Shown here one piece after another: positions 21,126 to 41,525 of a stretch of 64,000 bases of DNA; the stretch's first letter is position 1; each line of letters opens with the position of its first letter. A program made the translations under genes and the position numbers. The stretch comes from Eubacteriales bacterium (GTDB lineage: Bacteria > Bacillota > Clostridia > Oscillospirales > CAG-272), in assembly GCA_045656745.1 (NCBI GenBank), contig JAZORT010000023.1, positions 28,901 to 92,900 of the forward strand, written 5' to 3'. The notes below the pieces were generated by a model. The model was not told where the DNA came from and did not search any database. It worked only from the letters and a program-made list of their open reading frames with translations.

Positions 21126-21130
21126 TTTGG

Positions 21131-22630
21131 TTATATACGATTGCTTTGTTTTACTGCCGTTTTTATTTTTTGCTTCAGGGCGGGGGTCTTGTATCTTGCG
21201 CCGAGCCTAAATGTCCAGTTGCCCTCGGCGGTGGAGGGTGTGTTCATTCTGCCCTCCTCGCTCTTTAACTCGAGGTAGTCCTGGATAGGAATTACGGCAA
21301 TAGCCGCCTTCGAGGAAAGGGTAAGGCCGATAAGGTCAAGGGTGAGGCTTTGCCCTTTTTTGTGTGGGCACTCGTGCTTAAATCTTGCAAGGGTCTCCCC
21401 CTCAAGAGAAAGGCAAAAGCTCCTTGTACATTCCGAGTCGTGGGAGCCGGTGTAGGCAATGCAGTTTTCGTCCTTGTAGCAACGGGGAAGATACTCACTG
21501 TCCTCATCGTAAAAGGCAAATTGCAAAATCTTCATTCCGGGGAAGCCTGTGTCCGAAAGAAGCTCTCTTACATCGTCGGTAATAAAGCCAAGATCCTCGG
21601 CAATTATCTTCGCCTCGGGAAAAGCTCGCTTTATCTCGCGGAAAAGCTCCTTTCCCGGAGCCTCGCGCCATTCACCCTCTCTTGCCGTATCGTGACCGTA
21701 GGGTATGGAATAATAGCCCGCAAAACCGCGGAAATGGTCTATTCGAAGCAGGTCGTAAAGGCGAAATCCCTCGCCTATTCTCTCTTTCCACCAGCCAAAG
21801 CCGTCGTTTTTCATCCTATTCCAATTATATATAGGATTTCCCCAAAGCTGACCGTCGGGCGAAAAGCCGTCGGGAGGACAGCCCGCAACACGCCTCGGCG
21901 CATAATTATCGTCAAGGAGAAATTCATTGGGCGCGCGCCAAACGTCCATACTGTCGTGGGCTACATAAATAGGCATATCTCCTATGATAGAAACGCCCCT
22001 TTTCCTTGCATAAGAGCGAAGGGCGCGCCATTGGGCGTCAAACTCGTACTGTACCCAGCACCAAAATCCCATTTCCGAGGAAAATTCCGCGGTCCTCTCT
22101 CTTGCGGAGTTAATATCGCGGTATTCGGCAGGCCACATTGTCCAAGCAGAGTGGTTAAAACGGCATTTCAGCGCCATAAAGAGGGCGTAATCCGAAAGCC
22201 AAGCCGTATTTTTAAGGAATTTTTCATATTCCTTTTGTTCTTTTTCGGTATTCAAAAATCTCGAGTATGCAAGTCTTAAAAGCGGGTATCTTGTCTCAAA
22301 AAGTCTGCCGTAATCCACCCTCTTTGCACCGGATTTGTGCGCTGAGGACTCGTTTTTTGTGAGAAGGCCCTTTTTTTGCAAAATCTCAAGGTCTATAAAG
22401 TAGGGGTTTCCCGCCATAGAAGCAGGCGATTGATAGGGACTGTCACCGTAAGAGGTGGGATTTAAGGGCAAAACCTGCCAATATTTATTTTTCGTTTCGG
22501 CAAGAAAGTCGGCAAACTCAAAAGCACTTTTGCCAAATCCGCCAATGCCGTAAGGCGAGGGCAGTGCGCTTATGGGCATAAGAATTCCCGCCCCGCGGGG
22601 AAAACTAACGGTTTTTTCTTTTTCGTTCAT
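21131..22630 (-). CDS. malQ: 4-alpha-glucanotransferase (GH77, amylomaltase)
   Basis: GILMPISALP, WQVLPLNP, GDSPYQS, GCPPDGFSPDGQLWGNP, RIDHFRG and AEDLG motifs. Confidence 0.95.
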   Translation of the reverse strand: MNEKEKTVSFPRGAGILMPISALPSPYGIGGFGKSAFEFADFLAETKNKYWQVLPLNPTSYGDSPYQSPASMAGNPYFIDLEILQKKGLLTKNESSAHKSGAKRVDYGRLFETRYPLLRLAYSRFLNTEKEQKEYEKFLKNTAWLSDYALFMALKCRFNHSAWTMWPAEYRDINSARERTAEFSSEMGFWCWVQYEFDAQWRALRSYARKRGVSIIGDMPIYVAHDSMDVWRAPNEFLLDDNYAPRRVAGCPPDGFSPDGQLWGNPIYNWNRMKNDGFGWWKERIGEGFRLYDLLRIDHFRGFAGYYSIPYGHDTAREGEWREAPGKELFREIKRAFPEAKIIAEDLGFITDDVRELLSDTGFPGMKILQFAFYDEDSEYLPRCYKDENCIAYTGSHDSECTRSFCLSLEGETLARFKHECPHKKGQSLTLDLIGLTLSSKAAIAVIPIQDYLELKSEEGRMNTPSTAEGNWTFRLGARYKTPALKQKIKTAVKQSNRI

Positions 22631-22865
22631 AAAATACTCCAAACAGTGGGCAAAAGCCCTATAAAAATTATATCACCGAGTAAAATAAAAGTCAACAAAT
22701 AAAATATGAAAAAAGCCTCGGAAATGTTCATAATCTGTTGACATTTGTCAATCGGTGTGTTAAAATATAAATCAAGGACCAAAATACTGATGAAAGGATT
22801 AAAATTTTCGTTTTCAATGCTATTTTGGTCTGAATTTTTTATAACACTTTTGGAGGAATAAGCAA

Positions 22866-24215
22866 ATGGCAAAAAATCTTGTTTATGACATTCACGACAA
22901 GCCGAAGTTTGGCAGCATGCTTCTCTTCGCGCTTCAGCAGGTTCTGGCGATACTCGCCGCAACCATCCTGGTTCCCGCTATCGTTGGTTACGGTATGAGC
23001 CAGTCCGCCGCTCTCTTCGGAGCAGGCGTAGGTACTCTCGTTTATCAGCTCTTCACTAAGTTTAAGAGCCCCGTTTTCCTTGGCTCATCCTTCGCCTTCA
23101 TCGGCTCTATGTGCGCAGCCTTCGCAGGAGCAGGCTCTGTTGTAGCTCTCGGCTACCTCGGTCTCGTTATCGGTGCGCTCTTCGCAGGTCTTGTTTACGT
23201 TGTTATCGCTATCGTGGTTAAGTTCGCAGGCGTTAAGTGGATAAACAAGCTTATGCCCGCCGTAGTTATCGGCCCCACAGTTGCTCTTATCGGTCTTTCT
23301 CTTGCGGTTAACGCAGTTAACGACCTCAAGGTAGGTAAGGTTACCGATATAACCGGCGCTTCTCTTTGCAGTCCTTATATCGCTCTTCTTTGCGGTATTA
23401 TAACCCTCTTTGCAATCTTTGCTCTTTCGGTTTACGGCAAGAAGATGATAAAGCTTATTCCCTTCGTTCTCGGTATAGTCGTTGGTTACGCAGTTGCTTC
23501 GGTATTCACCGTTATCGGAATTGCTACCGACAACGTTGCTCTTCAGGTTATCAACTTCGCAGCCTTCAAGGACATGCAGATCTTTGCAGTTCCCGACTTC
23601 GCATTCATCGAAGCATTCAAGGGCTTTGAGGCTTTGAGCCCCACCTTCATCGCAACCGTTGCTGTTGCTTACGTTCCCGTTGCATTCGTAGTATTTGCTG
23701 AGCATATCGCAGACCACAAGAACCTTTCCACCATTATTGAAAGAGACCTTCTCGAGGATCCCGGTCTTCACAGAACTCTTCTCGGTGACGGCGTTGGCTC
23801 TATGGCAGGCGCGTTCTTCGGCGGATGCCCCAACACCACCTACGGCGAGAGCGTTGGTTGCGTAGCTATCACCCGTAACGCATCGGTTATCACCATTACC
23901 ACCACCGCTATCATGTGTATGGTAATCTCCTTCTTCGGCCCCTTCGTTACCTTCCTTTCCTCTATTCCCAACTGCGTAATGGGCGGTGTTTGCGTAGCTC
24001 TTTACGGCTTCATTGCAGTTTCGGGTCTCAAGATGATTCAGAAGGTTGACCTTAACGAAAGCAGAAACCTCTTCGTTGTTTCTTCTATTCTTATCCCCGG
24101 TATCGGCGGTCTTAGCGTTACCTTCGGTAAGATTACCCTTACCACCATTGCTTGTTCTCTCATTCTCGGTATAGTAACCAACATCATCCTTAACCTCGGT
24201 AAGAAAAATTCCTAA
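22866..24215 (+). CDS. uraA: Uracil/xanthine permease (NCS2)
   Basis: 'FLGSSFAFI', 'EHIADH', NAT signature 'PNTTYGESVG'; directly upstream of upp. Confidence 0.88.
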   Translation: MAKNLVYDIHDKPKFGSMLLFALQQVLAILAATILVPAIVGYGMSQSAALFGAGVGTLVYQLFTKFKSPVFLGSSFAFIGSMCAAFAGAGSVVALGYLGLVIGALFAGLVYVVIAIVVKFAGVKWINKLMPAVVIGPTVALIGLSLAVNAVNDLKVGKVTDITGASLCSPYIALLCGIITLFAIFALSVYGKKMIKLIPFVLGIVVGYAVASVFTVIGIATDNVALQVINFAAFKDMQIFAVPDFAFIEAFKGFEALSPTFIATVAVAYVPVAFVVFAEHIADHKNLSTIIERDLLEDPGLHRTLLGDGVGSMAGAFFGGCPNTTYGESVGCVAITRNASVITITTTAIMCMVISFFGPFVTFLSSIPNCVMGGVCVALYGFIAVSGLKMIQKVDLNESRNLFVVSSILIPGIGGLSVTFGKITLTTIACSLILGIVTNIILNLGKKNS

Positions 24216-26639: not shown

Positions 26640-28151
26640 TTAACCTTTTCTTTTTTTGATGTATTGCTTTGGCGAAACGCCGTAAAATTGCTTAAAGTTC
26701 TTTGAAAATACCGCAGGGTCAACAATTCCGCACTGCTCGGCTATCCTTGAAATGTTTGCATCCTCGCCGAGAATAAGAAGAAGCTCCTTTGCCTTTTTCA
26801 TTCTTATTGTGGTAAGGTACTTTTTCGGGGTCATTTGCGTAACCTCGAAGAACTTTGTTCTAACATAGTCCTTGGCGTAACCGCTGTCGCGAAGAAGCTT
26901 GATGATGCTAAGCTCGCTGTTGCTGTAATTTTTCTTCATCTCGTCTATCATCTTATAGATTACCGCGTTCGTGTCGCTCTTGGGGAAATCTATATTAAGA
27001 AGAACGAACCTTAAATAGGCGTTGCAGAGCGAGTTAAAATATTCCTCGTTGGTATATCTGTTGTAAAGAGTAAGCTCCGCAAGCTTTCTGCCCTCGCCGT
27101 AAACATTGTCGTGAAGAAGGGTAGGGGAGGTAAACCTTGAAAGCTGGTCGAAATCACCCGTTACAGATATAATGTTGTATTTGCCCTCGGAGGTTATTCG
27201 GTGGTTTACTGCGGGAGGAACAATGATAATCGAGCCTTCGTAAATAGAAAATTCGTCCTGCTCGGTAATGAACACCGCATCTCCCGACTGAACGAGCATA
27301 ATCTCGTAGAGCTTGTGGGTGTGGAAAATCTGTGTGCCGTGAAGCTGCACACCCTTTGAGGCACTCCAAAGAGCAGGGTCCATAGAGAGAAAGTCGTCAA
27401 ACTTTTTAAGCCTCATATCTACAAAGAAGTCTTTTTCCGAGGGAATTCCGCCCTCGAAATCATAAACGCGCATAAGCTCGCTCGGAATATGCAGGGGAGA
27501 GGACGTGTCCTTGTAGCTCTCGCGCAAGAGGGTGAATGAAATATCGTCAAGATACTGAATACCCTTAATTTTCGTTGCGTAATGTATCATAAGCGCTCTT
27601 GTGGGGAGCTCGGTCTTTGCATTTATCTTAACATCGCGGAAGATGCGATCGGATCCACCGTCCTCTAAAACAAAGAGCTTCAGCCTTGAGTCTATGCCGT
27701 CAGAGTCAAGGTAGTATTCCGCGCGCAGGGTGTACCAGCTGTCGGAGCAAAGCCGTATTGCCTCGCTCTCGGGCAGGTCGGAAGGAAATACCGAAATCGA
27801 CCTTGCCGAAAGGTTGTTCTCTCCCTCGCTGATGTTAAAGCGCAGAGAAAAGCAGGATGTTCCCGCATTGTTACAAAACTCAATCTTAAAATACTTCTTC
27901 GAGTAATTCCAAACCGGCTCAAAGCGGTAACGCATTTCAAAAACAAAGGCGGTGGGCGAGGAGGACGCCGCGTTGCCCGCAATATTCGTTGTACTGCTGA
28001 TATTATGGGTGGTATTAGCGGTGAAAATCTTTATAACCTTGTTGTTTTTGTCGGTCGGGTCGGTGTCCTGGTAAAACCTGGCACCGTAAAGTCCATTAAA
28101 ACTAGGTGTGAGATCTTCATCATTAGAGATAACTCTGGCGTTGATTTCCAT
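26640..28151 (-). CDS. Extended AraC regulator (503 aa): lectin-like N-terminal domain, cupin, HTH
   Basis: 'HTHKLYEIMLV' cupin and C-terminal AraC HTH. The N-terminal ~260 aa aligns by eye with a module of lipoprotein 31743..37364. Confidence 0.88.
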   Translation of the reverse strand: MEINARVISNDEDLTPSFNGLYGARFYQDTDPTDKNNKVIKIFTANTTHNISSTTNIAGNAASSSPTAFVFEMRYRFEPVWNYSKKYFKIEFCNNAGTSCFSLRFNISEGENNLSARSISVFPSDLPESEAIRLCSDSWYTLRAEYYLDSDGIDSRLKLFVLEDGGSDRIFRDVKINAKTELPTRALMIHYATKIKGIQYLDDISFTLLRESYKDTSSPLHIPSELMRVYDFEGGIPSEKDFFVDMRLKKFDDFLSMDPALWSASKGVQLHGTQIFHTHKLYEIMLVQSGDAVFITEQDEFSIYEGSIIIVPPAVNHRITSEGKYNIISVTGDFDQLSRFTSPTLLHDNVYGEGRKLAELTLYNRYTNEEYFNSLCNAYLRFVLLNIDFPKSDTNAVIYKMIDEMKKNYSNSELSIIKLLRDSGYAKDYVRTKFFEVTQMTPKKYLTTIRMKKAKELLLILGEDANISRIAEQCGIVDPAVFSKNFKQFYGVSPKQYIKKRKG

Positions 28152-28372: not shown

Positions 28373-28501
28373 ATGAAAAAAATCGAATACGTAAGCACAG
28401 AGTGCGAAGTTGTGCTTATCGAAACAAGTGACATTATCGCAACATCAAACGCACCCGGCTCCAGCGGCGGAAATATGGACGATTCCTGGGATGAAGGCTA
28501 A
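28373..28501 (+). CDS. Cassette 2 small peptide (42 aa) MKKIEYVSTECEVVLIETSDIIATSNAPGSSGGNMDDSWDEG
   Basis: Not in the ORF track. AAAGGAG RBS at 28361-28367; homologous leader; first gene of the operon. Confidence 0.82.
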   Translation: MKKIEYVSTECEVVLIETSDIIATSNAPGSSGGNMDDSWDEG

Positions 28502-28543
28502 AAAACAAAAAACAATACATAATTTTTGAAAGGAAAAGAAAAA

Positions 28544-30178
28544 ATGAAAAACACATTTACCAAAATCGCGCTTCTCGTTCTTTCTCTCGCTCTCCTTGCT
28601 TGCGTTCCCTTCGCAGTAAGTGCTGAGGAGACTTCGAACGAGGTTAAGATCCTTGCAAAGAACGTAATTTACGAGGATCAGATCAGATTAGTATTCGCAG
28701 TAGACGCAACCGTTGAGGAAGCTAACAACGTTAAGGTTGTTTACAAGTGGGGCGAGGATGGCGAAGTTAAGAACGCAGTTCTTCTCGATCCTACCGTTTC
28801 AGTCAACCTTTATAATGACCATCCTGCTTTCGCAATTGACGGCGTTCCCGCAAAGGAGCTTGCAGCTACCGTTTACGTAACTGCTTTTACCGGTGACGCT
28901 CCCGCAGACGATGCAGATTGGCTTACCTATTCCGCAGCAGAGTACTTCTATGCGAAGCTCTACAAGGACGGCTTTATTAACATGACCGAGGCAGACGGCG
29001 ATGACTATAACAGAAAGTGCCTCTACCAGACTCAGCTCGAGCTTGGTAAGTACGCACAGCTCGTTCTTAACTACAACGAAAATCAGCTTGCAACCGATTA
29101 TTCCTATATCTTCACCACTAACGAGAGCGTAAGCTTCGGCGGCAAGAGTACCGCTTTCGGCTACGGCGAGCTTAGCCTTACCGCAACCTCCGAGCTTGCT
29201 ATCTCGGGTTGGACTCTCACCGATATGAACGGAGAAGAAACCACTCTTGAAACCGCTATCCTCACTGCTAAAGGCGTTTATAGCGTAGAGCCTATCTTCG
29301 GCGGTCACGATTGCGCTGATGAAAATCCTGTAGACCACCTCTGTGATTCTTGCGGCGACCCTTTAAGCAGCTGTGCTACTAACGATAACAATCACCTCTG
29401 CGATCTTTGCGGCAAGGTAGCTTCCACTTGTGTTGACGCAGACAAGAACGGTCAGTGCGATGTTTGCTTTGTGTACAATTTCAACGTTGAAAGCATGGCG
29501 CAGTCCGAGCAGTTGAACATCTATAACGTTGCTTGGAACGGACAGGATACTACCGTAGAAGATAATTTCTCTTCTACCACGACTCTTACCACGTCTCAGA
29601 ACCGTCCCAGCGGCTTCGACAACGGCGAATGGTTCTGCCTTGCTGCCAATCCCACCGACGCTGCCGACACCGTTCTTAGATTCAATTCGATTTACAAGAA
29701 AGATAATACCGAGAAGTCCCACATAACCTTCGCTCCTAATGTTGAGGTTGAAAACGGCGACCTCGTTGTATTCGAGTTTGACTTCTACCATGTCAGCGGC
29801 GCTTCCTCAAAGAACCCCATTCGTTTCTACGATATTTATGCAGACGGTACGGCTTCTGCCGACTACACACCTACCTATACGAATGCGAATAACGTTGCAG
29901 TTTCCATAGGAACAACCAAACCTACGTTTGCTAAGGAAACTTGGGTAAGATACCGCCTCGTTTATAACAACTCTAACGATACTATTTATTGGTATTACAG
30001 CGTTGACGGCGGTGCAACCTATGCGTTTGCCGGCACAAACGCTTATAAGGCTGCAAGTGATATAGTTGCTGTCGGATTCAGAGGAAACAACGTATGGAAC
30101 GGCAACTCCACGCTTCTGTTCGACAACATTAAGTGTGTAAAGACTACCGCTGAGGCTTACGGTATCACCCTTAACTAA
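28544..30178 (+). CDS. Cassette 2 secreted protein: shared N-terminal domain, Cys/His-rich repeats, lectin-like module
   Basis: Sec signal ending VSA-EE; 'GVPAKEL...YSAAEYFYAKLY'; HLCDxCG repeats. Confidence 0.85.
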   Translation: MKNTFTKIALLVLSLALLACVPFAVSAEETSNEVKILAKNVIYEDQIRLVFAVDATVEEANNVKVVYKWGEDGEVKNAVLLDPTVSVNLYNDHPAFAIDGVPAKELAATVYVTAFTGDAPADDADWLTYSAAEYFYAKLYKDGFINMTEADGDDYNRKCLYQTQLELGKYAQLVLNYNENQLATDYSYIFTTNESVSFGGKSTAFGYGELSLTATSELAISGWTLTDMNGEETTLETAILTAKGVYSVEPIFGGHDCADENPVDHLCDSCGDPLSSCATNDNNHLCDLCGKVASTCVDADKNGQCDVCFVYNFNVESMAQSEQLNIYNVAWNGQDTTVEDNFSSTTTLTTSQNRPSGFDNGEWFCLAANPTDAADTVLRFNSIYKKDNTEKSHITFAPNVEVENGDLVVFEFDFYHVSGASSKNPIRFYDIYADGTASADYTPTYTNANNVAVSIGTTKPTFAKETWVRYRLVYNNSNDTIYWYYSVDGGATYAFAGTNAYKAASDIVAVGFRGNNVWNGNSTLLFDNIKCVKTTAEAYGITLN

Positions 30179-30426: not shown

Positions 30427-31710
30427 ATGCATAATAAAAACATTTTGACAAAAGAAAGAATAGACTCTCTTCGAGAAATAAGAAACAAAAAGAGAGAAGA
30501 ATCCTTTGCTGCTCTCGTTCCCGCTATGGGCGAGGAAGCGGTGGAGGAGATAAGAAAAATCTACTCAATGTTTGACGAGAGAATGCTCGTTTGGATGGCA
30601 AACCTTTGGGAGCCTAACATTGGCGGATTTTATTATTCCAATTCCGCAAGAGACCACGAGGGCTTTCTTCCCGACCTTGAGTCCACCCATCAGGCGGTGA
30701 TCTTCATTACCGAGCAGTGCGGACTTGTCTCTAAGGATCAAATGCATATAACTGCAATCCCCGAGAGATTTGCTTCAAAAATGGCAGACTTTGCCTATGA
30801 TCTTCAGGACGAGGACGGCAGCTTCTATCACCCACAGTGGGGTAAAAACATAACCGCAACAAGAAAGGGCAGGGACGGTGCCGCGGCCTGGCGTCTTATC
30901 GAGCCTCTTGGCAGAAAGTGCAAGTATCTTCGCCTTTCACAGCGCCCGAAAAACGAGGAAACAAAGGCGGCATTGCCCGAATTCCTTGCCTCTACCGACA
31001 CACTTTTGGAATGGCTTGAGGGTCAGCGCATAGAAGAGCGCTCCTATCAGTTTGGTCATTATATAAACTCCACCTCAACAAACTTCTTTGTGGCGGGTCA
31101 GGAATACGTTGACACCCTGGTCGCTTGGCTTAACTCCAAAAACCGCGCGGATAACGGACTTTGGGAGCCGCAGGTTAACTACTCTTCGGTAAACGGACTT
31201 ATGAAGCTCAGCCTTTGCTACCCCGGCTTTGGCGCAAAGCTCCCCTATCCCGAAAAATCCTATGAGAGCGCAAGAGCCGCAGTGCTTTCCGATGAGCCTC
31301 TTACCTTTGCCTGCGAATATTACAACGCCTGGGCGGCTGTTAACAACTCCATAAAATCTATGGATGGCGAAATGGCAGAGGCCTACCGCGAAAAGCTCAA
31401 GCAGGATGCCCCCGAAATGATAAGAGTTACGGGCGAAAAAATGGCAAAGTGCAGAGTTGACGACGGAAGCTTTGCTTACTTTACCGCCGAGTCGGGAAAA
31501 GCCTGCCCTCGCTCGCAGGGTGCGCTTGTGGGCCTTGAAAATGTGAGAGAGGGAGACATAAACGGCAACGGTTGCTCGACCAGCGCCCCCTTGCGTCACC
31601 TTTTTGCGGCATTCGGTGTTGAAAAACCCACGATGTTTACCTCTGAGGATGCCGAGCTTATCTTCGAGCTTATGGACAATGCGGTCTCTCCTGTTAAAAA
31701 ACCGCTTTAA
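30427..31710 (+). CDS. Cassette 2 cytoplasmic unknown barrel enzyme
   Basis: GGFYYSNSARD, FLPDLEST, FYHPQWG, RKGRD, VNGLMK and EGDING motifs; no signal peptide. Confidence 0.85.
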   Translation: MHNKNILTKERIDSLREIRNKKREESFAALVPAMGEEAVEEIRKIYSMFDERMLVWMANLWEPNIGGFYYSNSARDHEGFLPDLESTHQAVIFITEQCGLVSKDQMHITAIPERFASKMADFAYDLQDEDGSFYHPQWGKNITATRKGRDGAAAWRLIEPLGRKCKYLRLSQRPKNEETKAALPEFLASTDTLLEWLEGQRIEERSYQFGHYINSTSTNFFVAGQEYVDTLVAWLNSKNRADNGLWEPQVNYSSVNGLMKLSLCYPGFGAKLPYPEKSYESARAAVLSDEPLTFACEYYNAWAAVNNSIKSMDGEMAEAYREKLKQDAPEMIRVTGEKMAKCRVDDGSFAYFTAESGKACPRSQGALVGLENVREGDINGNGCSTSAPLRHLFAAFGVEKPTMFTSEDAELIFELMDNAVSPVKKPL

Positions 31711-31742
31711 CATTCCTTTTTAAAATAAAAGCGAGGAAAATT

Positions 31743-34700
31743 ATGAAAAAAATTCTTTTACTTACACTTTCCCTCCTTCTTATTCTTGCGATGTGCGTTT
31801 CGTGCAACAAGAAGGACGGCGAAACAAAGCCCTCGGACGATACAAATGCTCCGAGCGGTGACAATACCGACACACCTCCGTCGGGCAGCCTTGTCTGGTC
31901 TGAAAATACAAGCACCTTGATATTGGTTAGCGACAGCGATAATTACGGAATTCTCGAGGTTTTGTCAACTCATGTTTACGAAACGTCCGGAAAAATACCC
32001 CAAGTCAAGGGTGAGGATGTGGATGGTAATTACGGCAGAATTATAGTTGGTGACAACGGCTCCGATATTGCGAAAAAGGCTTACAAAAAGCTTGACGATT
32101 ACGCAAATCTCCAGGGTCTTTTCGATTCAAAGAGAAGCGCATGGCTGATTTGGTCGGAAAACGGCACTATCGTTATTGCATACAGTGACCTTCTTGCTAA
32201 AAAGGACGCGATAGACTACATTGCCAAAAATTACACCACCGCGGCTTTCGGCCCCGGTAACGGCACTCTCTCAAAGGCAATATTTGATATTGAAGAATAT
32301 CTCACCGTCTTAAGGGAGACCGAGCAGGCTCCTTATATGCAGGAGCTTGGCGCAATTCTCGGCGCAGACGCTCTTGAAGCCTTTAAAAAGCTTTATTCTA
32401 TTTATGACGAGGACCTTTACGTTTGGCTTGCTAACCTTTGGTGTCCCGATAACGGCGGCTTCTATTATTCCGCCTCTGCGAGAAACAACGAGGGCTTCCT
32501 TCCCGACCTTGAATCTACCGGCCAGGCGCTGAAGATAATGGATAACGCAGGACTTTCGGTGGCTCTTGGCGGCAGCTGGCAGAAAATGCTTCCTAAGGAC
32601 ATTGCCGAAAAGCTGGTTAAGTTTGCATACGATATGCAGGCAGAGGACGGATATTTCTATCATCCCCAGTGGGGCACCGGAATTTCCACCACCAGAAGAG
32701 GCCGTGACGCAGGCTGGGCAAAAACCATTCTTTCGGGTCTTGGCGCAACGCCGAAATATCCTTACCTTAGCGGCATAACGACCCCCACCGCATCGCTCCA
32801 CCTTACCACCTCCCTCAAGGGAGGCTCCTCTGCGGAACTTGTTTCTAAGGTGATGCTAACTGCGGCAAGTAACTCAAAGTATGAATCCGAGGCAAGCTTT
32901 ATTGCCTACCTTGATTCGCTTAAATTTAACGAAAACTCCTATTCTGCGGGTAACGTAATAAACTCCACCACCTCCGAAATCAAGAAGGCGGGATATTGGC
33001 AGACTCTCAGAGATTATCTTACCGAGCATCAGAATCCCGAGAACGGTCTTTGGGAGGACGAGGTAACCTATCAGTCTGTTAACGGCTTAATGAAGCTTTG
33101 CACCTGCTTTGGCTCCTCTTATCCCAATGCTGAAAAGGCTCTCGAGTCGGCAATGCAGATACTTATGCGTCCTATTGACGACGAGCTTACGGGTATAACC
33201 TATGTTTACAACCCCTGGGTTGCTATTGCAAACCTTCTCCACGCGGTAAGCGACGAGACTGAGACTACCCTTCGTCAGATGCTTCGCGATAACGCAAAGG
33301 AAATATTCCTTATGACTGCCGAAAAGCTCTCTGCTTTTGCAAAGGATGACGGCGGCTTCTCCTACCTTAGAGATTATTCCTCTCCCTTCTCTCAGGACTC
33401 GCTCGTTGCAGTCAGCGGAAGCGTTGAGAGTGATGTAAATGCTACTACTATCGCTATCTCTACCGTTGTGCGTTATATGGAAGAGGTATTCGACCTTAAA
33501 TTCCCCCCTCTTTACTCAAGATACGAGGGAATCTATTTCGTAGATACCCTTACAAGCATGGGTACTATCATAAAGGACAGCCTTCTTGCCAAGGACCCCG
33601 AGGTTATCACCTTTGACGAATACGAAGATGATGACATTAAGGTCGACGCCAATGTTGTAACCAATCCTCACCCCGCTGTCGAAAACAGAATAGGTGATGC
33701 TGAGACCGACGGCAGCGAATATATCTGGTTTGAGGCAGCCCTTGTTCCCAACCCCAAAAAGGAGGCGGGCAACACCGACTATGTACTCTACGCGGGTGAT
33801 AAGACAAGACCCGAGGACAGCGGATACGATAAGCTTGTTGCAGAAACTGCAAGCTCTACCATATTTAACATTACCAACCTGGGCGCACCCGGAAACTGTT
33901 ACGTTTTCGAGGCAGATATGCTCTTCGGCGGCAGCGAAAGCAGCACAAGCCCCGTAGCTCAGCTTAACTTTGTAAGGGATACCGGCTCTGACCCCCTTAT
34001 CTCTGCTTGGGTAGACTTCTATCAGTACACGAGAGGTGGTCAGAATTACCTCAGAATTCAGGAATACTTCGCAGGTGCTGACGGCGTTAAGGATACCGAG
34101 GTCGTTGCGGGACTTCCCGTTGACGATTGGTTCAAGCTCCGCATCGAGATGTATAAGGATTACTCCGGCGAGGGCGGCGAGCTTAAAATAATGCTCAAAT
34201 TCTTCGTTAACGACAAGTTCGTAGGCATCTCCGACTCGGGTCACTACCAGAAGGGCGCATACAAGGACTTCCTTGTTAACGCAGTTAAGCTCTCTTATTA
34301 CAGACACGCAGCATCTTCCTTCTATCTTGACAACATCTATGTTGCAAAGAAGAATCTTACCTATGAGCTTGGTAAGTATGAGTCTGACGCGGTTGAAAGA
34401 CCCGTTAGCGACAAGAAGGTTTATGACTTTAATGACGGACTTATTCCCAACGGTCCCGACATCTGGACCGAGATGTACTACCGTAACGAGGACGGCGAGC
34501 AGGTTATGATGAACGCTGCCGATTGGACCAACGACCTTGATTCTCAGTTCGGCGGCTCCAAGGGTCCCGGCGCAAAGGTTTATATTGCAGACGACCCCGA
34601 GAGCGCGGCAAATAAGGTGCTTCGCGCATATTCCTTCAACACCAAGACCTCTTCCTATAAGGCAACAATGCATGTTGACGGAATGTTAACGAAGGAGGGA

Positions 34701-37364
34701 GCCGACACTTGGGAGGTAGAGTTTGACTACTACTTTGACAAGATCTCTTGGATCTACTCCAAAAACTTCTTCACCCTCGCATTCTGTAACGAAAACGGCA
34801 GTACGATGACTGCTATTAACTTCAACGGACTTAACTGGGACGATTCTCACAATACCGAGGTTCTCGGCATTGCTCTTAGTGACGGAACTACTCTTGAAAA
34901 CTTCGTTATTTACGATGCAACCTGGTACACCTTCAAGGTGGTTTATCACCACAACGAGACCAATCCCGCCGAGTCTATGCTTCTTATCTACGTTCTCGGT
35001 ACCGACGGATACCAGTGTATCGCAAATACCGCGGTAAGCAGTAAGTTCGGCGCAGTAAGCGGTGTTGACCTTGTGTTCCAGTGCTATGACATCAGAGGAA
35101 CTCAGTATATCGACGACCTTTCGGTTTCTATAACCGATACCGCCTACGTTTACGATAAGCCTATCGAGGGCGAGATAGAAATTCCCGTTCCCGAGGATAA
35201 CAAGATCTACGTTGAAGGCTCTCAGAGAGGAAACGGCGTATATTATGAAAATGCCGAAAGATATACCGCGGCGTCTCACGCCGAGCTTATCAAAAACGGC
35301 ATTATGGCAAAAAACACAAAGCGCGGCGACGGTATTGGCGACGGCAACCGTGAGCTTGAATTCGTTAATGTTGACGGCGGTTACGCCCTCTCTTACACAT
35401 CCACCGGCAGCGGCAACCACGCGCTCAACTTTGTATCAAAGGCTCCCGCAATAGACGGCTTCGTCTTCGAAACCGACATAAAGCTTTCGGGCGTTGATAC
35501 CGAGGAGGGCAGAGACATTCGCTTTACGGGTACTGCGACCAACGGTACTGCTGACTCGGGTCTCTACGCCTTCAACCTTAAATTCCATAAGAACCCCAAT
35601 GACAGAAGCGGCGGTTACATCGTTACTATACAGAACAACGAGCAGAAGGTCGTTATAAAGGACGACGTATGGGTAAACGTTCGCCTCGTTGCAGAGGGAA
35701 CAAAGGAAAACTCTCCTCTCAAGCTTTATATCAACGGCACGATGGTTGTTGAAAGCACTCTTAACGCAGATATTTCTACCATAAAGGGCGTTGAGCTTTA
35801 CACTCCTTCGACCTACAACGGCCACGGCTGGGAGCAGGGTACCGTTTACCTTGATAACACCTATGTTTCGGGTACCGGCGTTTACGTTCCTCCTCCCACC
35901 TTTACCGAGGAATCGAGAGGCGAGGGTAAGAACGCAGGAAGCGCAATCACCTATGAGGGAACAACCTATGACGACCTTGTCAATGGCGGTTATATGGCAA
36001 AGAACACCTCAAGAGGCGACGGAATTGAGGCAGGCAACAGAACACTTGAGCTTAAAGATGTTGACGGCGGTAATGCACTCGTTTATTCGGCTCTTGCCAG
36101 CGGAAACCACTCAATAAACTTCAAGAATGAAAACGATCCTCACTACGGCTTCCTCTTCGAAACCGACATTAAGCTTAACGGTATTAACAACTCGGACTCC
36201 AGAAAAGTAACCTTTGTGGGAACTAACTCAAACGGCACAAATAATGCAGGACTTTGGGGCGTTAACATCGGCTTCTATAAGAATACCGAGACCGAGGACG
36301 GCGGTTATATTGTAACCGTTGGCGGTGCTGAGGACGATTGGAAGGGCATTATCGCGGAGGATACCTGGGTAAATATCCGCTTTGAGTCCACCTCTCTTGC
36401 ACAGGACGGCGCATTCAGCTTCTACATCAACGGTGAAAAGGTTTGCGACGGCGCCCTTACCTCGGCTATCACCTCAATTAAGGGTATCGAGCTTTATACT
36501 CCTTCAACCTCGGGCGGCGAGGGCTTTGTCAGCGGTTCGATAAGCCTTGATAACACCTATGTTACCGGTACAAACGCGCCCGTAGAAGAGATTACCTCCA
36601 CCTCCAGAGGCGAGGGTCTGGGCGTTGATAAGGCTATAAGCTATGACGGCACAACCTACGATGAGCTTCTTGCAGGCGGTAGAATTCTCGAAAACACTTA
36701 TAGAAAAGACGGTGTTTTGGATGGACACAGAACTCTTTCTCTTGTAGATGTTGACGGCAACACAGCTCTCAAGTATTCTTCTATCGGCAGCGGCAACCAC
36801 GCAATCGACTTTGACATTGACGGCAAGGTTGAAGAGGGTCTTGTCTTTGAGACCGATATAATGCTCGAGGGAATTGACGCAAGCTTTGAAAGACCGATCA
36901 CCTTCTACGGCACATCCAACGGCGGCAGCGGAAACGTTGACGTTTGGAGCTTTGCTATCAAGCTTTGCGCTAACCCCGTAAAGACCCAGGGCGGTACATA
37001 TCTTCAGATTGCGGGAAGCTCTTTCCATATAGTTATTCCCGATAACACCTGGATAAACCTCCGCGTTGAGTTCAAGGGAACAAAGATGGGCGACAGATTT
37101 GATATCTATATTAACGGCGAATATGTTGATATGGGACATCTGTCCGGCTCTATCTCGGCAATGACCGCAGTTGAGCTTTACACCCAGTCCACCCTTAATG
37201 GCAATCAGGGTATGGAAAACGGCTCTATCTATCTCGATAACACCTATATCTACGGTATCGAGGCAGAAGGACAGCCCGAAAATCCCACGCCCGACACTCC
37301 TAATCCCGAGCAGGGAACAGGCTCCAGCAGCGGCAATTTGGACGGCGAGGGCTGGGAAGACTAA
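31743..37364 (+). CDS. Cassette 2 giant lipoprotein (1873 aa): barrel enzyme domain, five beta-rich modules, acidic Trp tail
   Basis: Lipobox CVSC, conserved barrel motifs, three ~230-aa C-terminal repeats, ends GSSSGNLDGEGWED. Confidence 0.88.
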   Translation: MKKILLLTLSLLLILAMCVSCNKKDGETKPSDDTNAPSGDNTDTPPSGSLVWSENTSTLILVSDSDNYGILEVLSTHVYETSGKIPQVKGEDVDGNYGRIIVGDNGSDIAKKAYKKLDDYANLQGLFDSKRSAWLIWSENGTIVIAYSDLLAKKDAIDYIAKNYTTAAFGPGNGTLSKAIFDIEEYLTVLRETEQAPYMQELGAILGADALEAFKKLYSIYDEDLYVWLANLWCPDNGGFYYSASARNNEGFLPDLESTGQALKIMDNAGLSVALGGSWQKMLPKDIAEKLVKFAYDMQAEDGYFYHPQWGTGISTTRRGRDAGWAKTILSGLGATPKYPYLSGITTPTASLHLTTSLKGGSSAELVSKVMLTAASNSKYESEASFIAYLDSLKFNENSYSAGNVINSTTSEIKKAGYWQTLRDYLTEHQNPENGLWEDEVTYQSVNGLMKLCTCFGSSYPNAEKALESAMQILMRPIDDELTGITYVYNPWVAIANLLHAVSDETETTLRQMLRDNAKEIFLMTAEKLSAFAKDDGGFSYLRDYSSPFSQDSLVAVSGSVESDVNATTIAISTVVRYMEEVFDLKFPPLYSRYEGIYFVDTLTSMGTIIKDSLLAKDPEVITFDEYEDDDIKVDANVVTNPHPAVENRIGDAETDGSEYIWFEAALVPNPKKEAGNTDYVLYAGDKTRPEDSGYDKLVAETASSTIFNITNLGAPGNCYVFEADMLFGGSESSTSPVAQLNFVRDTGSDPLISAWVDFYQYTRGGQNYLRIQEYFAGADGVKDTEVVAGLPVDDWFKLRIEMYKDYSGEGGELKIMLKFFVNDKFVGISDSGHYQKGAYKDFLVNAVKLSYYRHAASSFYLDNIYVAKKNLTYELGKYESDAVERPVSDKKVYDFNDGLIPNGPDIWTEMYYRNEDGEQVMMNAADWTNDLDSQFGGSKGPGAKVYIADDPESAANKVLRAYSFNTKTSSYKATMHVDGMLTKEGADTWEVEFDYYFDKISWIYSKNFFTLAFCNENGSTMTAINFNGLNWDDSHNTEVLGIALSDGTTLENFVIYDATWYTFKVVYHHNETNPAESMLLIYVLGTDGYQCIANTAVSSKFGAVSGVDLVFQCYDIRGTQYIDDLSVSITDTAYVYDKPIEGEIEIPVPEDNKIYVEGSQRGNGVYYENAERYTAASHAELIKNGIMAKNTKRGDGIGDGNRELEFVNVDGGYALSYTSTGSGNHALNFVSKAPAIDGFVFETDIKLSGVDTEEGRDIRFTGTATNGTADSGLYAFNLKFHKNPNDRSGGYIVTIQNNEQKVVIKDDVWVNVRLVAEGTKENSPLKLYINGTMVVESTLNADISTIKGVELYTPSTYNGHGWEQGTVYLDNTYVSGTGVYVPPPTFTEESRGEGKNAGSAITYEGTTYDDLVNGGYMAKNTSRGDGIEAGNRTLELKDVDGGNALVYSALASGNHSINFKNENDPHYGFLFETDIKLNGINNSDSRKVTFVGTNSNGTNNAGLWGVNIGFYKNTETEDGGYIVTVGGAEDDWKGIIAEDTWVNIRFESTSLAQDGAFSFYINGEKVCDGALTSAITSIKGIELYTPSTSGGEGFVSGSISLDNTYVTGTNAPVEEITSTSRGEGLGVDKAISYDGTTYDELLAGGRILENTYRKDGVLDGHRTLSLVDVDGNTALKYSSIGSGNHAIDFDIDGKVEEGLVFETDIMLEGIDASFERPITFYGTSNGGSGNVDVWSFAIKLCANPVKTQGGTYLQIAGSSFHIVIPDNTWINLRVEFKGTKMGDRFDIYINGEYVDMGHLSGSISAMTAVELYTQSTLNGNQGMENGSIYLDNTYIYGIEAEGQPENPTPDTPNPEQGTGSSSGNLDGEGWED

Positions 37365-37402: not shown

Positions 37403-37430
37403 GCGAGGATACCGTTTTGCGGTATCCTCG
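37403..37430. terminator. Probable bidirectional terminator
   Basis: CGAGGATACCG-TTTTG-CGGTATCCTCG between convergent genes. Confidence 0.6.
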
Positions 37431-37437
37431 TCTGTCA

Positions 37438-38310
37438 TTATATGTTTTTTTGAAGCCTTTTTTCCCTTGATACACCCGTCATTTTTGCGCGGTATTCGGA
37501 GGGAGATGTGCCGTATTGCTTCTTAAAGGAGCGGTTAAAGTAGGAAATGTTGTTAAATCCGCACTCCAGTGCAATTTCTATTATTCTTTCGTCTGTTTTT
37601 ATCAGCATTTCCTCCGCGCGAATGAGCTTTTGCCTTTGGTTATACTCGGCGTAGCTCATACCAACCTCCTGCTTGAAAAGACGGCCGATATATTTTTCGT
37701 TTTTTTGATAGGTTTTTGCAAATTCGGCAAGAGAGGTCTCGGTTTGGTAAAGCTCGTCGGCGTGGCGCTTCATAAGATAAACCAGCCAGTGCATCTCGTG
37801 CTTTGGCTTAGGCGCGTTTTTGTCAAGATATAAAAGATAGTCCTTAACGAGCTCCCCAATCCTAAAAAGCTCCTCGGGGGTGTCGATATGTTCGCAGTTT
37901 TCAAGCTCCGAGATAAGCATTTTTTCGTCAGCGCCTGAGCGGGAGCAGGTCCTTTTTATAATTTCGACCGATTTTTCCTTGTCTATAACCGCGTTGCCGA
38001 CATAAATAACCGCGCAAACACCTCCGTTTGTTAAAACGGGGACGGCAATCTCAAAAATGCCGTAAATGCAGTGACCGCAAAAGGGCTCCTTTTCCGAAAC
38101 CGCCTTGGCGTTGGCAAAGGTCTTGCATTTTAGGCAGGGTCTGCCCTTTGATGCCGATTTTGCTATGGCGCAGTATTTTTTCGTATGCACGATGTTATCC
38201 AATTCAAGCTTTGTATAAGGGCTGTCGGTAATTCCCGAAAGGTCAAGGACACTAATGTGGATATTGCGCCCCCTTGTCAGCTCGTCAATCAAAAATTGAA
38301 GTGTTTGCAT
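37438..38310 (-). CDS. AraC regulator with PocR-like sensory domain
   Basis: 'YCAIAKS...CLKC...CIYGIFEIAVPV...VIYVG' is PocR-like; C-terminal AraC HTH; divergent from cassette 3. Confidence 0.88.
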   Translation of the reverse strand: MQTLQFLIDELTRGRNIHISVLDLSGITDSPYTKLELDNIVHTKKYCAIAKSASKGRPCLKCKTFANAKAVSEKEPFCGHCIYGIFEIAVPVLTNGGVCAVIYVGNAVIDKEKSVEIIKRTCSRSGADEKMLISELENCEHIDTPEELFRIGELVKDYLLYLDKNAPKPKHEMHWLVYLMKRHADELYQTETSLAEFAKTYQKNEKYIGRLFKQEVGMSYAEYNQRQKLIRAEEMLIKTDERIIEIALECGFNNISYFNRSFKKQYGTSPSEYRAKMTGVSREKRLQKNI

Positions 38311-38472: not shown

Positions 38473-38613
38473 ATGAAAGAAAAAATAAGCTACACCGAAG
38501 CGCTTATCGAAGTTGTAAGCCTTGAAATTTCGGACATCGTAACCTCCTCGTCAAATTCGGGCGGCAGCTGGGGCGGCTCGGGCGGCAACATAGACCCGGA
38601 CGGCTGGGTTTAA
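38473..38613 (+). CDS. Cassette 3 small peptide (46 aa) MKEKISYTEALIEVVSLEISDIVTSSSNSGGSWGGSGGNIDPDGWV
   Basis: Not in the ORF track. AAAGGAG RBS at 38455-38461; homologous leader; first gene of the operon. Confidence 0.82.
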   Translation: MKEKISYTEALIEVVSLEISDIVTSSSNSGGSWGGSGGNIDPDGWV

Positions 38614-38653
38614 AGCAAAACAACCAAATTTTAAAACTTGAAAGGGTAAAAAA

Positions 38654-40120
38654 ATGAAAAAAACAAGACTTATTATTTTCGCATTTACACTTGCCTTGCT
38701 CGTGTCCGCATTCGTTGGATTCAGCGCAAGCGCAGAGGAGGACGGCGCGCTTGAAATCAAGTCGTTGAACCTCGTTTATAATGACAAGGTTGAGCTTCTC
38801 GTTGCTATTGATATTGATAACTCTCAGAGAGATAACGTTGAGGTTACTTACACCCTCGGCGGTGAGAGCTACGAGGCAATGCTTCATCCCACCGAAACCT
38901 ACACGAATGACGGCGTTACATATCCCGTATTCTACACTGTGGGTATAGCTCCCAAGGATATTGACTCGGTTATGACCTTTGAAGCGCACATCAAGGGCAG
39001 CGGAGCAAAGGGCGAGGCATACTCGGCTTCTATTCTCGACTACCTTTACGCAAGACTTTATAAAAACGGCTATATAGATATGACCGAGGGCGATGACCTC
39101 AAGAGAAAAGAGCTTTACATTAACACGATAAACTACGCCTCCAGCGCAAAGGACGTTCTCGTTAACGTTGGGGAGGGCAAAGAGGAGCCTCTCTTCACCG
39201 ACTATCTCTTCGCTTGGTCGAATGATGACGGCTTCAAGGTTGCAGCCGACCGCTTCTTCGGTGCTTTTACTCCCGGCAGCGAGATAACCCCCGTTTTCGT
39301 TGGCGAAGGCTCCGTTTCCGAGTGGAACCTCTTTAATGCAGAGGGCGTGTCTCTCGGCACTGCTGAGCTCGGCTCCGCCGTAGCGCTTAACTGCCACACC
39401 GAGTTTTCTAAAGCCGTGCTCGAGGACAGCGTTACCGTAATGGATTATGAAAACGGCGCATCTAATGCTTTTGTATCCTCCGTTGACGCAAGCGGCAACC
39501 CCGTAAGCGGTGCTTATGCAAGCGGCTCTTCGCTTGCGATGGGTCTTACTACTAAAGGTGACAACACCTATCTCCAGGTTCGTAACCCTGCAAACAGCGG
39601 TAAGACCGGCGTAACTACCGTAAATCTTTCCAACACTATTCAGACAGGTAACTGCTACACCTTCGAGACCAAGATCAATATAGAAGGCGCAACCGGCGGC
39701 AACAACTTCGCTCAGCTCGTGTTCGTTAACAACAACGGCGGTGAGGCTGTAAATCTTTATCTGAAGGCTACAAATAATGCGAACGGAAAGGCTAACTTTG
39801 CTGTTGCAACCACCGGCACAAACTCTAACTTCACCGCGGGTACCGTTCTCTTCGACTATAACGACAAGTCTATCGGCACTACCACCTGGTTCACTCTTCG
39901 CGTTGAGTTCTACTTTGAAGGCGCGGGCGATGCTACTGCGGAGAACACCTACATGAAGCTCTACGTTGACGATATTCTCGCATACGACGGTCTTGCGCAC
40001 TGGGCGCTTGGCGCAAACATCAACCGCGTTGAGATAAGACACGTCTCCGCAGGTAAGACTCACAACACCTGCTACGATGACATCTTCTTCACCAGAACAA
40101 ACAAGGCATACACAGAATAA
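38654..40120 (+). CDS. Cassette 3 secreted protein: shared N-terminal domain plus lectin-like module
   Basis: Sec signal ending ASA-EE; 'YPVFYTVGIAPK...SILDYLYARLYKNGY'. Confidence 0.85.
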   Translation: MKKTRLIIFAFTLALLVSAFVGFSASAEEDGALEIKSLNLVYNDKVELLVAIDIDNSQRDNVEVTYTLGGESYEAMLHPTETYTNDGVTYPVFYTVGIAPKDIDSVMTFEAHIKGSGAKGEAYSASILDYLYARLYKNGYIDMTEGDDLKRKELYINTINYASSAKDVLVNVGEGKEEPLFTDYLFAWSNDDGFKVAADRFFGAFTPGSEITPVFVGEGSVSEWNLFNAEGVSLGTAELGSAVALNCHTEFSKAVLEDSVTVMDYENGASNAFVSSVDASGNPVSGAYASGSSLAMGLTTKGDNTYLQVRNPANSGKTGVTTVNLSNTIQTGNCYTFETKINIEGATGGNNFAQLVFVNNNGGEAVNLYLKATNNANGKANFAVATTGTNSNFTAGTVLFDYNDKSIGTTTWFTLRVEFYFEGAGDATAENTYMKLYVDDILAYDGLAHWALGANINRVEIRHVSAGKTHNTCYDDIFFTRTNKAYTE

Positions 40121-40132
40121 ATAAAAACTGCT

Positions 40133-40168
40133 TCGTGGCTTTCGCTCATTGGTGAAAGCCACGATTTT
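40133..40168 (+). terminator. Intra-operon stem-loop after the cassette 3 secreted gene
   Basis: TCGTGGCTTTCGC...GTGAAAGCCACGATTTT. Confidence 0.6.
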
Positions 40169-40187: not shown

Positions 40188-41525
40188 ATGAAAACCAGAG
40201 AAGAAATACTGACAAAAGAGCGGCTTGATTTTGTAAAAGAAAAAAGAGAGGCTATTCGTGAGAAAGCCTTCCTAGCCGCAGAAGAAAAAATAGGCAAAGA
40301 GGGCGCATGTGCCCTAAAGGAGCTTTATTCCTCCTTTGATGAAAAAATATATATTTGGTTTTCGGGGCTTTGGGATAAGGACATAGGCGCGTTCTATTAT
40401 TCCGAGTCGGCAAAAGACACCTCTCCCTATCTTCCCGATATAGAAAGCACTGTGCAAATCCTCCGCTTTCTTAACAACTCGGGTATGATTGCCAAAGGCG
40501 AGGGAAGCTACCTTAACAGAATACCCGCTGCGGTGCGCGAGGGAATAGTGAATTTTGCTCTTTCGCTCCAGGACCCAGACGGCTTCTTTTATCACCCACA
40601 ATGGGGCAAGAATATCTCTCCCTCAAGGCGGGGCAGGGACCTTTCCTGGGCAAAAAACACCCTTGCCGATGCGGGCGTTCAGCCGAAATATATGCTCCCC
40701 ACCGCAAAGACCGCGGACGGAAAACGCTCGGAGCATCTTCCCGATTACCTAAAGGATATAAGCCTTTTTAAGGAATATCTTGAAAAATTCGACATTCGTG
40801 AAAATTCCTATTACATAGGAAACATTATAGAGTCAACAATGTCGCTTATCAGCGCTGCGGGCGAGGAATATACTTCCTATCTTGCCGAGTGGCTCAACCG
40901 CAACAACCGCGCGGATAACGGACTTTGGGAGGAAGAGATAAAATATTCCTCGGTTAACGGACTTATGAAGCTTTCGGGCAATTACCCTGCCTTAAAGACG
41001 GGACTTCCTCACGCAGAGGCATCTCTTCGCAGCGCATTTTTTGCCGCTATGAGTGACGAGAGAATGAAGTTCGTTTGCGAGGTCTATAACCCCTGGGCAA
41101 CCATAGGCAATATCTTCCGCGCAAACAAGGACACCCCCGACAAGGCGGTGCTTGACAGTATGAGAGCAGAGCTTATCGAAAGCGCCCCCCGTCTTATTGA
41201 AAAAACCAAAGAAAAGATAGGCGTTTTCGGAAAGGGTGACGGCTCGTACTCCTATTTTAAACGCATGTCAAGCTCTATTTCTCAGGGCGCTCCCGTTGCG
41301 ATCCCCGGCACAAACGAGGGTGACGTAAATGCAACCACAATATGTGTCGGCTCTACGGCAAGGTGTATATGCGCGGCATTCGGTTTGCCGATGATACCCA
41401 TTTTCGCTCCCGAGGACGGAGAGCTGTTCTTCGAGCTTTTGGAGAACGCCCCCGCCGTAGTAAAAAAGCGCAGTCTTGATGTTTTTCCCGAAAAGCTTTC
41501 CGATAAGGAAGAGCTTGGTGAATAA
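40188..41525 (+). CDS. Cassette 3 cytoplasmic unknown barrel enzyme
   Basis: GAFYYSESAKD, YLPDIEST, FYHPQWG, RRGRD, VNGLMK, YNPW and EGDVNAT motifs. Confidence 0.85.
   Translation: MKTREEILTKERLDFVKEKREAIREKAFLAAEEKIGKEGACALKELYSSFDEKIYIWFSGLWDKDIGAFYYSESAKDTSPYLPDIESTVQILRFLNNSGMIAKGEGSYLNRIPAAVREGIVNFALSLQDPDGFFYHPQWGKNISPSRRGRDLSWAKNTLADAGVQPKYMLPTAKTADGKRSEHLPDYLKDISLFKEYLEKFDIRENSYYIGNIIESTMSLISAAGEEYTSYLAEWLNRNNRADNGLWEEEIKYSSVNGLMKLSGNYPALKTGLPHAEASLRSAFFAAMSDERMKFVCEVYNPWATIGNIFRANKDTPDKAVLDSMRAELIESAPRLIEKTKEKIGVFGKGDGSYSYFKRMSSSISQGAPVAIPGTNEGDVNATTICVGSTARCICAAFGLPMIPIFAPEDGELFFELLENAPAVVKKRSLDVFPEKLSDKEELGE

Follow-up and report, generated by a model that had tools for sequence, protein, structure and literature searches.

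A recurrent toroid-fold domain of surface lipoproteins and cytoplasmic proteins in an uncultured Clostridia genome is a candidate glycan-cleaving family

We conclude that a domain of about 400 residues, encoded six times in a 64,000-nucleotide stretch of the Eubacteriales bacterium assembly GCA_045656745.1 (contig JAZORT010000023.1, positions 28,901 to 92,900; the window below), is a new sequence family with a predicted (alpha/alpha)6 toroid fold. Copies of this toroid occur in small cytoplasmic proteins and in giant lipoproteins, within a gene cassette that recurs across the genome. We put at roughly even the chance that the toroid is a cofactor-independent, glycan-cleaving catalytic domain (a hydrolase, possibly a lyase) that is used both outside and inside the cell. 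Support for this reading rests on the toroid fold and the position of its conserved site, on a glycosidase-type domain that precedes the toroid in the lipoproteins, on fusions to lectin-like and carbohydrate esterase modules, and on a context of AraC regulators and exo-glycosidases.

The six window proteins form three pairs on the plus strand, in which a small gene is followed by a large partner after 3 nucleotides (locus 1, 8598 to 10022 and 10026 to 14138), 32 nucleotides (locus 2, 30427 to 31710 and 31743 to 37364), or 21 nucleotides (locus 3, 40188 to 41525 and 41547 to 45680). All six open reading frames (ORFs) were confirmed at the starts given in the original prediction, an earlier reading of the bare sequence; the ATG codons at 8598 and 40188 lie inside ORFs that could also start at TTG 8559 and TTG 40149. 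In translation, the three large proteins carry lipoboxes (LVGC in the 10026 protein, CVSC in the 31743 protein, and LASC in the 41547 protein), and the three small ones have hydrophilic N termini and no signal peptide, which bears out the proposed pairing of lipoprotein and cytoplasmic forms. The 427-aa protein of 30427 is 40%, 36%, 35%, 33%, and 31% identical to the other five (BLASTP over 410 to 453 columns, E values of 2.6e-109 to 7.2e-47), and 56 columns of the six-way alignment are invariant, as befits the paralogs they had been taken for. Eight of the ten motifs first described as near-invariant are found by regular expression once in every one of the six proteins, with their order preserved; the other two, G[GA]FYYSxS and DG[SG][FY]xY, are found in five, the 10026 protein having GGYYYS and DGSYSF instead. 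The supposed repetition of a QW-like turn, Q-x-x-x-G-x-[FW], did not hold up, as this pattern occurs once per protein in five of the six. The element that repeats, about four times per protein, is a G-x-[FWY] hairpin that is not led by Q.

The domain was rightly described as unassigned. Its region in the six window proteins has no Pfam or NCBIfam match at E<=1, and no glycoside hydrolase (GH) model of either database matches the toroid. A phmmer search of PDB sequences gave a best E value of 1.5, and a profile of 56 family members matched only complement C4d (E = 0.71). Pfam scans of these 56 members found TED_complement in 3, Prenyltrans in 1 (E = 0.04), and a weak match to DUF5550 in 22 (best E = 0.0045), which we suspect reflects a charged N-terminal helix. 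The family is nevertheless large, with 875 relatives found when 8000 candidates of about the same length were scored (E<=1e-3), a further 537 among longer proteins, and 1101 metagenomic representatives of 50%-identity clusters at E<=1e-3; all source names shown for relatives read "hypothetical protein." Full-text literature searches, which excluded subscription journals and supplements, turned up nothing relevant to the domain, the cassette, or the peptide motifs described below.

The AlphaFold2 model of the 30427 protein, built from a 56-row alignment, is an all-alpha toroid with a predicted local distance difference test (pLDDT) value of 94.8 and a predicted template modeling score of 0.91. 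Foldseek returned no PDB match to this model at E<=1e-3; the best rows, at E values of about 1e-2, were the type II terpene cyclase MstE, the beta subunit of RabGGTase, GH76, GH88, and AGE epimerases. An exhaustive VIA search ranked farnesyltransferase beta first (2zir_B, 14.3, root mean square deviation 4.3, 282 aligned), followed by GGTase3 beta (12.9), a fungal FTase beta (11.5), the cyclase domain of a class III lanthipeptide synthetase (10.7), a cellobiose 2-epimerase (10.5), a squalene-hopene cyclase (10.4), and many six-hairpin glycosidases (7 to 9). In the protein atlas, PF00432 is found on the named clusters closest to the domain. Model and fold searches thus agree with the barrel of prenyltransferase or terpene cyclase type that had been suspected from sequence, and the structure prediction and Foldseek comparison proposed as a check gave a confident toroid and no confident full-length match to a characterized family. 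We class the domain as a new family within the known toroid fold.

Across 270 family members, Y69, D83, E85, T87, Y134, H135, Q137, W138, R146, R149, D150, Y207, W246, K260, N300, Q364, E375, D377, and N379 are 96 to 100% conserved. All 20 key residues are kept in 35 of the 52 full-length copies in the genome, in small and large forms alike, and a loss of four key residues is seen in one copy only (C31:5839). The conserved positions fall at the N-terminal ends of helices 84-97, 144-161, 202-215, 252-268, 296-310, and 378-395 or in hairpin loops that lead directly into these helices. We take these alternate helices of the model to be the six inner helices. The carboxylates D83, E85, D150, E375, and D377 (each at least 96% conserved) are placed at inner-helix N termini by secondary structure. 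In toroid and six-hairpin enzymes, the active site usually lies at the N termini of the inner helices, and from the helix topology we infer that the conserved residues form one pocket.

The composition of this site speaks against the chemistries of the nearest folds. Prenyltransferase beta subunits and LanC have Zn ligand sets of Cys and His, and class II terpene cyclases have a DxDD motif. No Cys is conserved in the 270 members (the top Cys column reaches 65%), H135 is the only His column above 50%, and DxDD reaches a best aligned fraction of 0.01, with any D.DD present in 18 members. Given no conserved Cys, a single conserved His, and no aligned DxDD, we reject Zn-dependent prenyltransferase or LanC chemistry as well as class II terpene cyclase chemistry, and the earlier alternative of a peptide-modifying enzyme fails in these forms, though a role in binding peptides is conceivable. 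Membership in the AGE epimerase superfamily, whose members have several conserved catalytic His residues, was also rejected, as H135 is the only conserved His of the toroid.

The six paralogs first counted are correct for the window and a large undercount for the genome. The assembly (1.75 Mb in 46 contigs, 60% complete) encodes 52 full-length toroid copies in 23 loci, comprising 26 small proteins (399 to 504 aa), 22 large lipoproteins (1278 to 2615 aa), and 4 intermediate forms. Their 52,677 residues in total take up 9.0% of the assembled bases. Of 80 lipobox-like proteins picked out with a crude pattern, 22 are toroid lipoproteins, which account for 36,329 of the 60,821 residues in this set (60%); toroid proteins dominate the predicted surface lipoproteome. 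The small forms do not group together in a quick maximum-likelihood tree: a small-only clade takes in twelve of them (support, 99), several more are placed next to the large partner from the same locus (support, 95 to 99), and the starred branches require the small/large label to change at least 8 times.

This expansion is patchily distributed. Among 30 relatives searched, the family was detected in 2 of the 17 other genomes of the same genus (25 and 7 matches) and was absent from 15, and no match came from the 12 searched genomes that belong to other families of its order. Completeness exceeds 90% in many of the genomes without the family. With 52, 25, and 7 toroid matches in three species of one genus, both presence and copy number vary to an extreme degree, and we regard 52 versus 0 copies within one genus as a clear case of niche-specific gene family expansion. 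In species-representative genomes, 222 stretches encode relatives. The 68 loci kept for comparison all come from metagenome-assembled genomes of uncultured Clostridia, Eubacteriales, Oscillospiraceae, or Ruminococcus; the sources given in record titles are the hindguts of deer and goats. A search of sequencing runs listed eleven DNA datasets (shares of 0.05 to 0.34) and no RNA dataset.

The segment between lipobox and toroid in the locus 2 lipoprotein (31884 to 32297, modeled from a 23-row alignment) has a pLDDT of 88.8 and no Pfam sequence match. Foldseek gave it nine PDB matches with E values of 1e-3 or lower, the best being 2.8e-4. Every row shown is the N-terminal domain of a GH115, GH84, GH20, or GH67 enzyme, in agreement with the accessory domain that had been suggested for this segment. 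The N-domain of GH20, GH84, GH67, and GH115 enzymes is known before TIM-barrel catalytic domains, not toroids. Lectin-like modules, also part of the original prediction, are present as ConA-like C-terminal modules, with Laminin_G_3 matches that are sub-threshold here and precomputed on relatives. Precomputed Pfam assignments are available for 14 of 120 listed long relatives, with PF13385 in 8, PF06439 in 5, PF14099 and PF01522 in 2 each, and PF08787, PF00337, PF00041, and PF23981 in 1 each. We take PF06439 to be 3-keto-disaccharide hydrolase-like, PF01522 to be a polysaccharide deacetylase, PF00337 to be galectin, and PF00041 to be fn3. F5/8 type C domains occur in 2 of 10 relatives of odd architecture, and the ConA-like modules show weak matches to polysaccharide lyase (PL) family 7 and PL-like families.

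The toroid genes belong to a recurring cassette that consists of the giant lipoprotein, the small cytoplasmic paralog, a secreted partner, a peptide of about 45 aa ending in ...GW(T), and an AraC regulator. The original prediction gave an incomplete account of it, missing the expansion to 52 copies, the conserved peptide and secreted partner present in each cassette, and a Trp-containing tail shared between peptides and lipoproteins. BLAST clustering of neighboring genes gave as dominant clusters 17 secreted proteins (452 to 695 aa, with signal peptides; the count leaves out the partner at 38654) and 16 AraC-type regulators; HTH_18 has 38 matches genome-wide. Neither the secreted partner nor the peptides have a Pfam, NCBIfam, or PDB sequence match. 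The peptide family comprises 22 ORFs of 38 to 53 aa in the assembly that adjoin a partner gene, and the peptide lies directly upstream of the partner in the three window loci. The peptides lack a signal peptide and follow the consensus K..YE.A.LEI....DVI(A/T)TS...W....N.D..GW(T)-end, in which the Trp, 1 to 6 residues from the C terminus, is invariant in 21 aligned sequences. After a Pro/Thr-rich linker, the same acidic Trp tail ends 12 of the 22 large lipoproteins, including the 10026 and 31743 proteins. In the window, positions 14040 to 14138 and 37290 to 37364 encode a Pro/Thr/Glu-rich linker with the acidic tails ...GGWTPERP and ...GEGWED, respectively.

At three sites (C10:8834-13225, C34:21709-23316, and C37:19459-22827), the peptide accompanies secreted proteins of the partner type, as long as 1189 aa, and a toroid gene is lacking for 7 kb around. 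We therefore tie the peptide first to the partner, and the two appear to form a separate module. Modules are also shared between cassette members. In locus 3, the last modules of partner and lipoprotein are 42% identical (E = 7e-35), and the N-terminal 220 aa of the AraC protein encoded at 26640 to 28151 match a module of the 31743 lipoprotein (25% identity, E = 2e-16). Judging from this similarity, the cytoplasmic regulator seems to reuse a surface binding module as its sensor. The 28526 partner contains, between its modules (29300 to 29480), Cys-rich repeats of the form D-x-N-x-D-x-x-C-D-x-C-G (HLCDSCG, HLCDLCG, and QCDVC), and similar repeats occur at the C termini of the lipoproteins C28:5293-9129 and C3:35750-43597 (BLASTP E = 8e-6).

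The carbohydrate context noted at the outset proved to be strong. Genes beside the 23 loci encode three GH1 enzymes, GH2, GH77, GH20C, GH3, a melibiase-like (GH36-like) protein, DUF4838, a PIG-L deacetylase, GH39, a trehalase/GH37/63-like protein, a ROK kinase, GH92, GH4, GH88, a GH106-like protein, a MurQ-like SIS protein, and a BadF-type kinase. No signal peptide is seen in the N termini printed for the neighboring GHs, most neighbors act on neutral or amino sugars, and in other genomes the commonest known neighbor is GH20C (13 genes in 10 loci). The assembly has 7 BPD_transp_1 matches (ABC sugar permeases), none of them near a toroid locus, and there is no transporter cluster among the recurrent neighbors; one MFS gene (7039 to 8274) adjoins locus 1.

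From these features we infer that the domain is catalytic, that its substrate is a glycan, and that labor is divided between the outside and the inside of the cell. In the proposed scheme, the lipid-anchored giant lipoprotein would hold its target glycan by the variable ConA-like modules, and the toroid behind the GH20/GH84/GH115-type N-domain would cut it. Fragments would enter through transporters encoded elsewhere in the genome, the cotranscribed cytoplasmic paralog would carry out the same reaction on them, neighboring cytoplasmic exo-glycosidases would finish the degradation, and the AraC regulator would sense a product. Should the toroid prove catalytic, it would be the founding member of a new carbohydrate-active enzyme (CAZyme) family that none of Pfam, NCBIfam, and PDB sequences sees, and the glycan use potential of these lineages would be underestimated by standard CAZyme annotation.

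Several observations weigh against a glycan-cleaving toroid. A site that is near-invariant in 52 paralogs, beside modules and neighbors that vary, is as compatible with an unchanging ligand as with an unchanging reaction, and the single pocket is read from helix topology. The loci encode no transporter, the Trp-tailed peptide of the cassettes is not explained, and the nearest folds are those of peptide-modifying enzymes. The ConA-like modules could themselves be catalytic, in view of their weak PL7 and PL-like matches and the presence of PF14099 and PF08787 on relatives. Finally, a fusion of the toroid to HTH_3 and SRA-like domains, described next, hints at sensing.

We consider it unlikely that the toroid is instead a noncatalytic glycan binder or sensor, capturing glycans at the surface in the manner of SusD and binding or sensing them in the cytoplasm, with cleavage left to other domains or proteins. 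One argument for such a role is C9:5357-7411 (locus L147), a 684-aa protein in which HTH_3 (E = 8e-13) and an SRA-like domain (PF18491, 38.1 bits, above the cutoff) are fused to a full toroid that keeps 18 of the 20 key residues and is sister to the adjoining small toroid; its locus lacks an AraC gene. Catalytic families exist within the ConA-like fold, PF14099 and PF08787 are present on relatives, and a lipoprotein and partner that share a module look like a binding complex. However, binding sites of differing specificity normally vary, whereas about 20 polar residues are near-invariant here, in a set rich in carboxylates, His, and Tyr at a position typical of toroid enzymes. Furthermore, no other extracellular enzyme candidate was recognized in the loci.

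A constant ligand could also be the acidic Trp tail, ...N-x-D-x-G-G-W-T-COOH. We think it rather improbable that the toroid is, instead of a glycosidase, a receptor for this tail (perhaps a processing enzyme), serving docking or signaling in a cohesin-dockerin-like or RRNPP-like manner, with its invariant Arg/Lys/His/Tyr/Trp pocket binding the constant peptide end. The shared motif of the 22 peptide genes, with its invariant Trp, speaks for such a receptor, as do the recurrence of the peptide in 36 of the 68 loci of other genomes and the presence of the tail on 20 of 50 large proteins there, in addition to the 12 of 22 lipoproteins here. An invariant pocket beside variable accessory modules would fit a constant ligand, and the one toroid copy fused to an N-terminal HTH would fit signaling. 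Yet it is the secreted partner, rather than the toroid, that the peptide gene accompanies, as the sites on C10, C34, and C37 illustrate; the peptides lack signal peptides although the lipoprotein tails are extracellular; and Zn-dependent chemistry of the prenyl or lanthionine kind finds no support in the conserved residues. A tail receptor would also leave the CAZyme context and the glycosidase-type N-domain unexplained. A complex prediction for the toroid and the cassette peptide scored 0.02 against a mark of 0.32, which is evidence neither way. If true, this reading would describe a hitherto unrecognized tag-and-receptor system that assembles or regulates a multicopy glycan-foraging surface apparatus on both sides of the membrane in uncultured gut Clostridia.

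A special case of catalysis, in which the toroid would be an (alpha/alpha)-toroid polysaccharide lyase acting on uronate-containing glycans, was raised by the original prediction and found little support: Y134, H135, N300, R146, and R149 do resemble the Tyr/His and Asn/Arg sets of toroid lyases, a KDPG/KHG aldolase is encoded at 2837 to 3805, and a gene of the GH88 family is found at a distance of two genes from the C28 locus, with an unscanned BLAST relative four genes from the C15 locus, but GH88 relatives adjoin only these 2 of 23 loci, no GH88 cluster is among the 25 largest clusters of 404 neighbors in other genomes, and the prevalence of neighbors for neutral or amino sugars also makes a uronate lyase improbable.

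The three window loci illustrate how the cassette is laid out. In locus 1, the lipoprotein (1370 aa) has a GH20b-like N-domain, a toroid at about 10575 to 11900, ConA-like modules, and the linker and tail given above. It is followed on the plus strand by a 44-aa cassette peptide (14189 to 14323, ending ...GDWTPERN) and the secreted partner directly downstream of it (14350 to 16383, 677 aa, with a signal peptide, a conserved N-domain, and ConA-like modules), and on the minus strand by an AraC-family regulator (16435 to 17250) with cupin and HTH_18 domains. Locus 2 begins with the AraC regulator whose N terminus resembles a ConA-like module of the lipoprotein (minus strand), a 42-aa peptide (28373 to 28501, plus strand, ...DIIATS...GGNMDDSWDEG), and the partner with the Cys-rich insert (28526 to 30178, plus strand, 550 aa). 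The small toroid protein chosen for modeling comes next, and then the lipoprotein (1873 aa), in which the toroid (about 32265 to 33600) precedes ConA-like modules, including three repeats of about 215 aa, and a Pro-rich linker with the Trp tail. A strong hairpin (37404 to 37430) lies between this lipoprotein and a convergent AraC-family regulator with a PocR sensory domain (37438 to 38310, minus strand); in a scan for promoters and terminators, counts were not above those of shuffles. Locus 3 has a peptide of 46 aa (38473 to 38613, plus strand, ending ...DPDGWV; 53 aa if read from 38452), the partner that shares its last module with the lipoprotein (38654 to 40120, plus strand, 488 aa), the small toroid gene, and a lipoprotein of 1377 aa with an N-domain, a toroid at about 42030 to 43415, ConA-like modules, and no Trp tail. 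A 552-aa open frame antisense to this partner (38504 to 40162, minus strand) is probably not a gene.

Other genes of the window include a GH20 hexosaminidase of the GH20C type without a signal peptide (45792 to 47390, plus strand), just beyond locus 3, and a GDSL esterase (17388 to 18179). Three GH1 paralogs of 448 to 449 aa start at 18316, 19722, and 22866, within 18316 to 24215 (the first only was scanned), and a GH77 4-alpha-glucanotransferase lies between them (21131 to 22642, minus strand). A prophage-like block (54390 to 62574, minus strand) encodes a terminase large subunit, a portal protein, a capsid-like protein, and an 880-aa leucine-rich repeat protein of the BspA type.

Compared with known systems, the toroid is closest in shape to prenyltransferase beta subunits and other PF00432 repeat proteins, with which it shares the (alpha/alpha)6 toroid, Gly-aromatic hairpins between helices, and its nearest atlas clusters. 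It differs from them in having only 7 to 8% identity, a PF00432 match in 1 of 56 members (E = 0.04) and in 0 of 6 window proteins at E<=1, and no Zn site of the Asp/Cys/His kind. Half of the toroid copies are extracellular, where prenyl diphosphates are not available, and no alpha subunit gene was recognized among the neighbors scanned. The six-hairpin glycosidases and AGE epimerases (GH15, GH76, GH78, GH88, and GH47; cellobiose and GlcNAc 2-epimerases) offer a second parallel, with conserved polar residues at inner-helix N termini, a carbohydrate gene context, and modular extracellular forms with lectin-like modules. In contrast, the toroid has no match to their Pfam models, its conserved residues cannot be equated with their catalytic residues, and its N-domain is of a type known before TIM-barrel domains.

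In RRNPP signaling, a small propeptide gene accompanies a cytoplasmic helical repeat receptor, often with an HTH domain. The cassette resembles this arrangement in its adjacent gene for a peptide of about 45 aa with a conserved C terminus, in its helical cytoplasmic protein, and in the single HTH fusion. It differs in that the toroid is not a tetratricopeptide repeat, an HTH is present in 1 of 52 copies, the peptides lack export signals, and the peptide is linked to the partner gene.

The wider comparison is with the polysaccharide utilization loci (PULs) of gram-positive bacteria (gpPULs) and with the Sus-like PULs of Bacteroidota. Shared with both are the many paralogous loci, a regulator, surface proteins that handle glycans, glycosidases that change from locus to locus, and enzymes of the same family outside and inside the cell. 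Unlike these, toroid loci lack a transporter, the family is absent from 15 of the 17 other genomes of the genus that were searched, and the core of the cassette is formed by four genes without known families (lipoprotein, cytoplasmic paralog, partner, and peptide). We class it as a new style of glycan utilization locus, and this four-gene cassette would be a third style beside the Sus-like PULs and the gpPULs.

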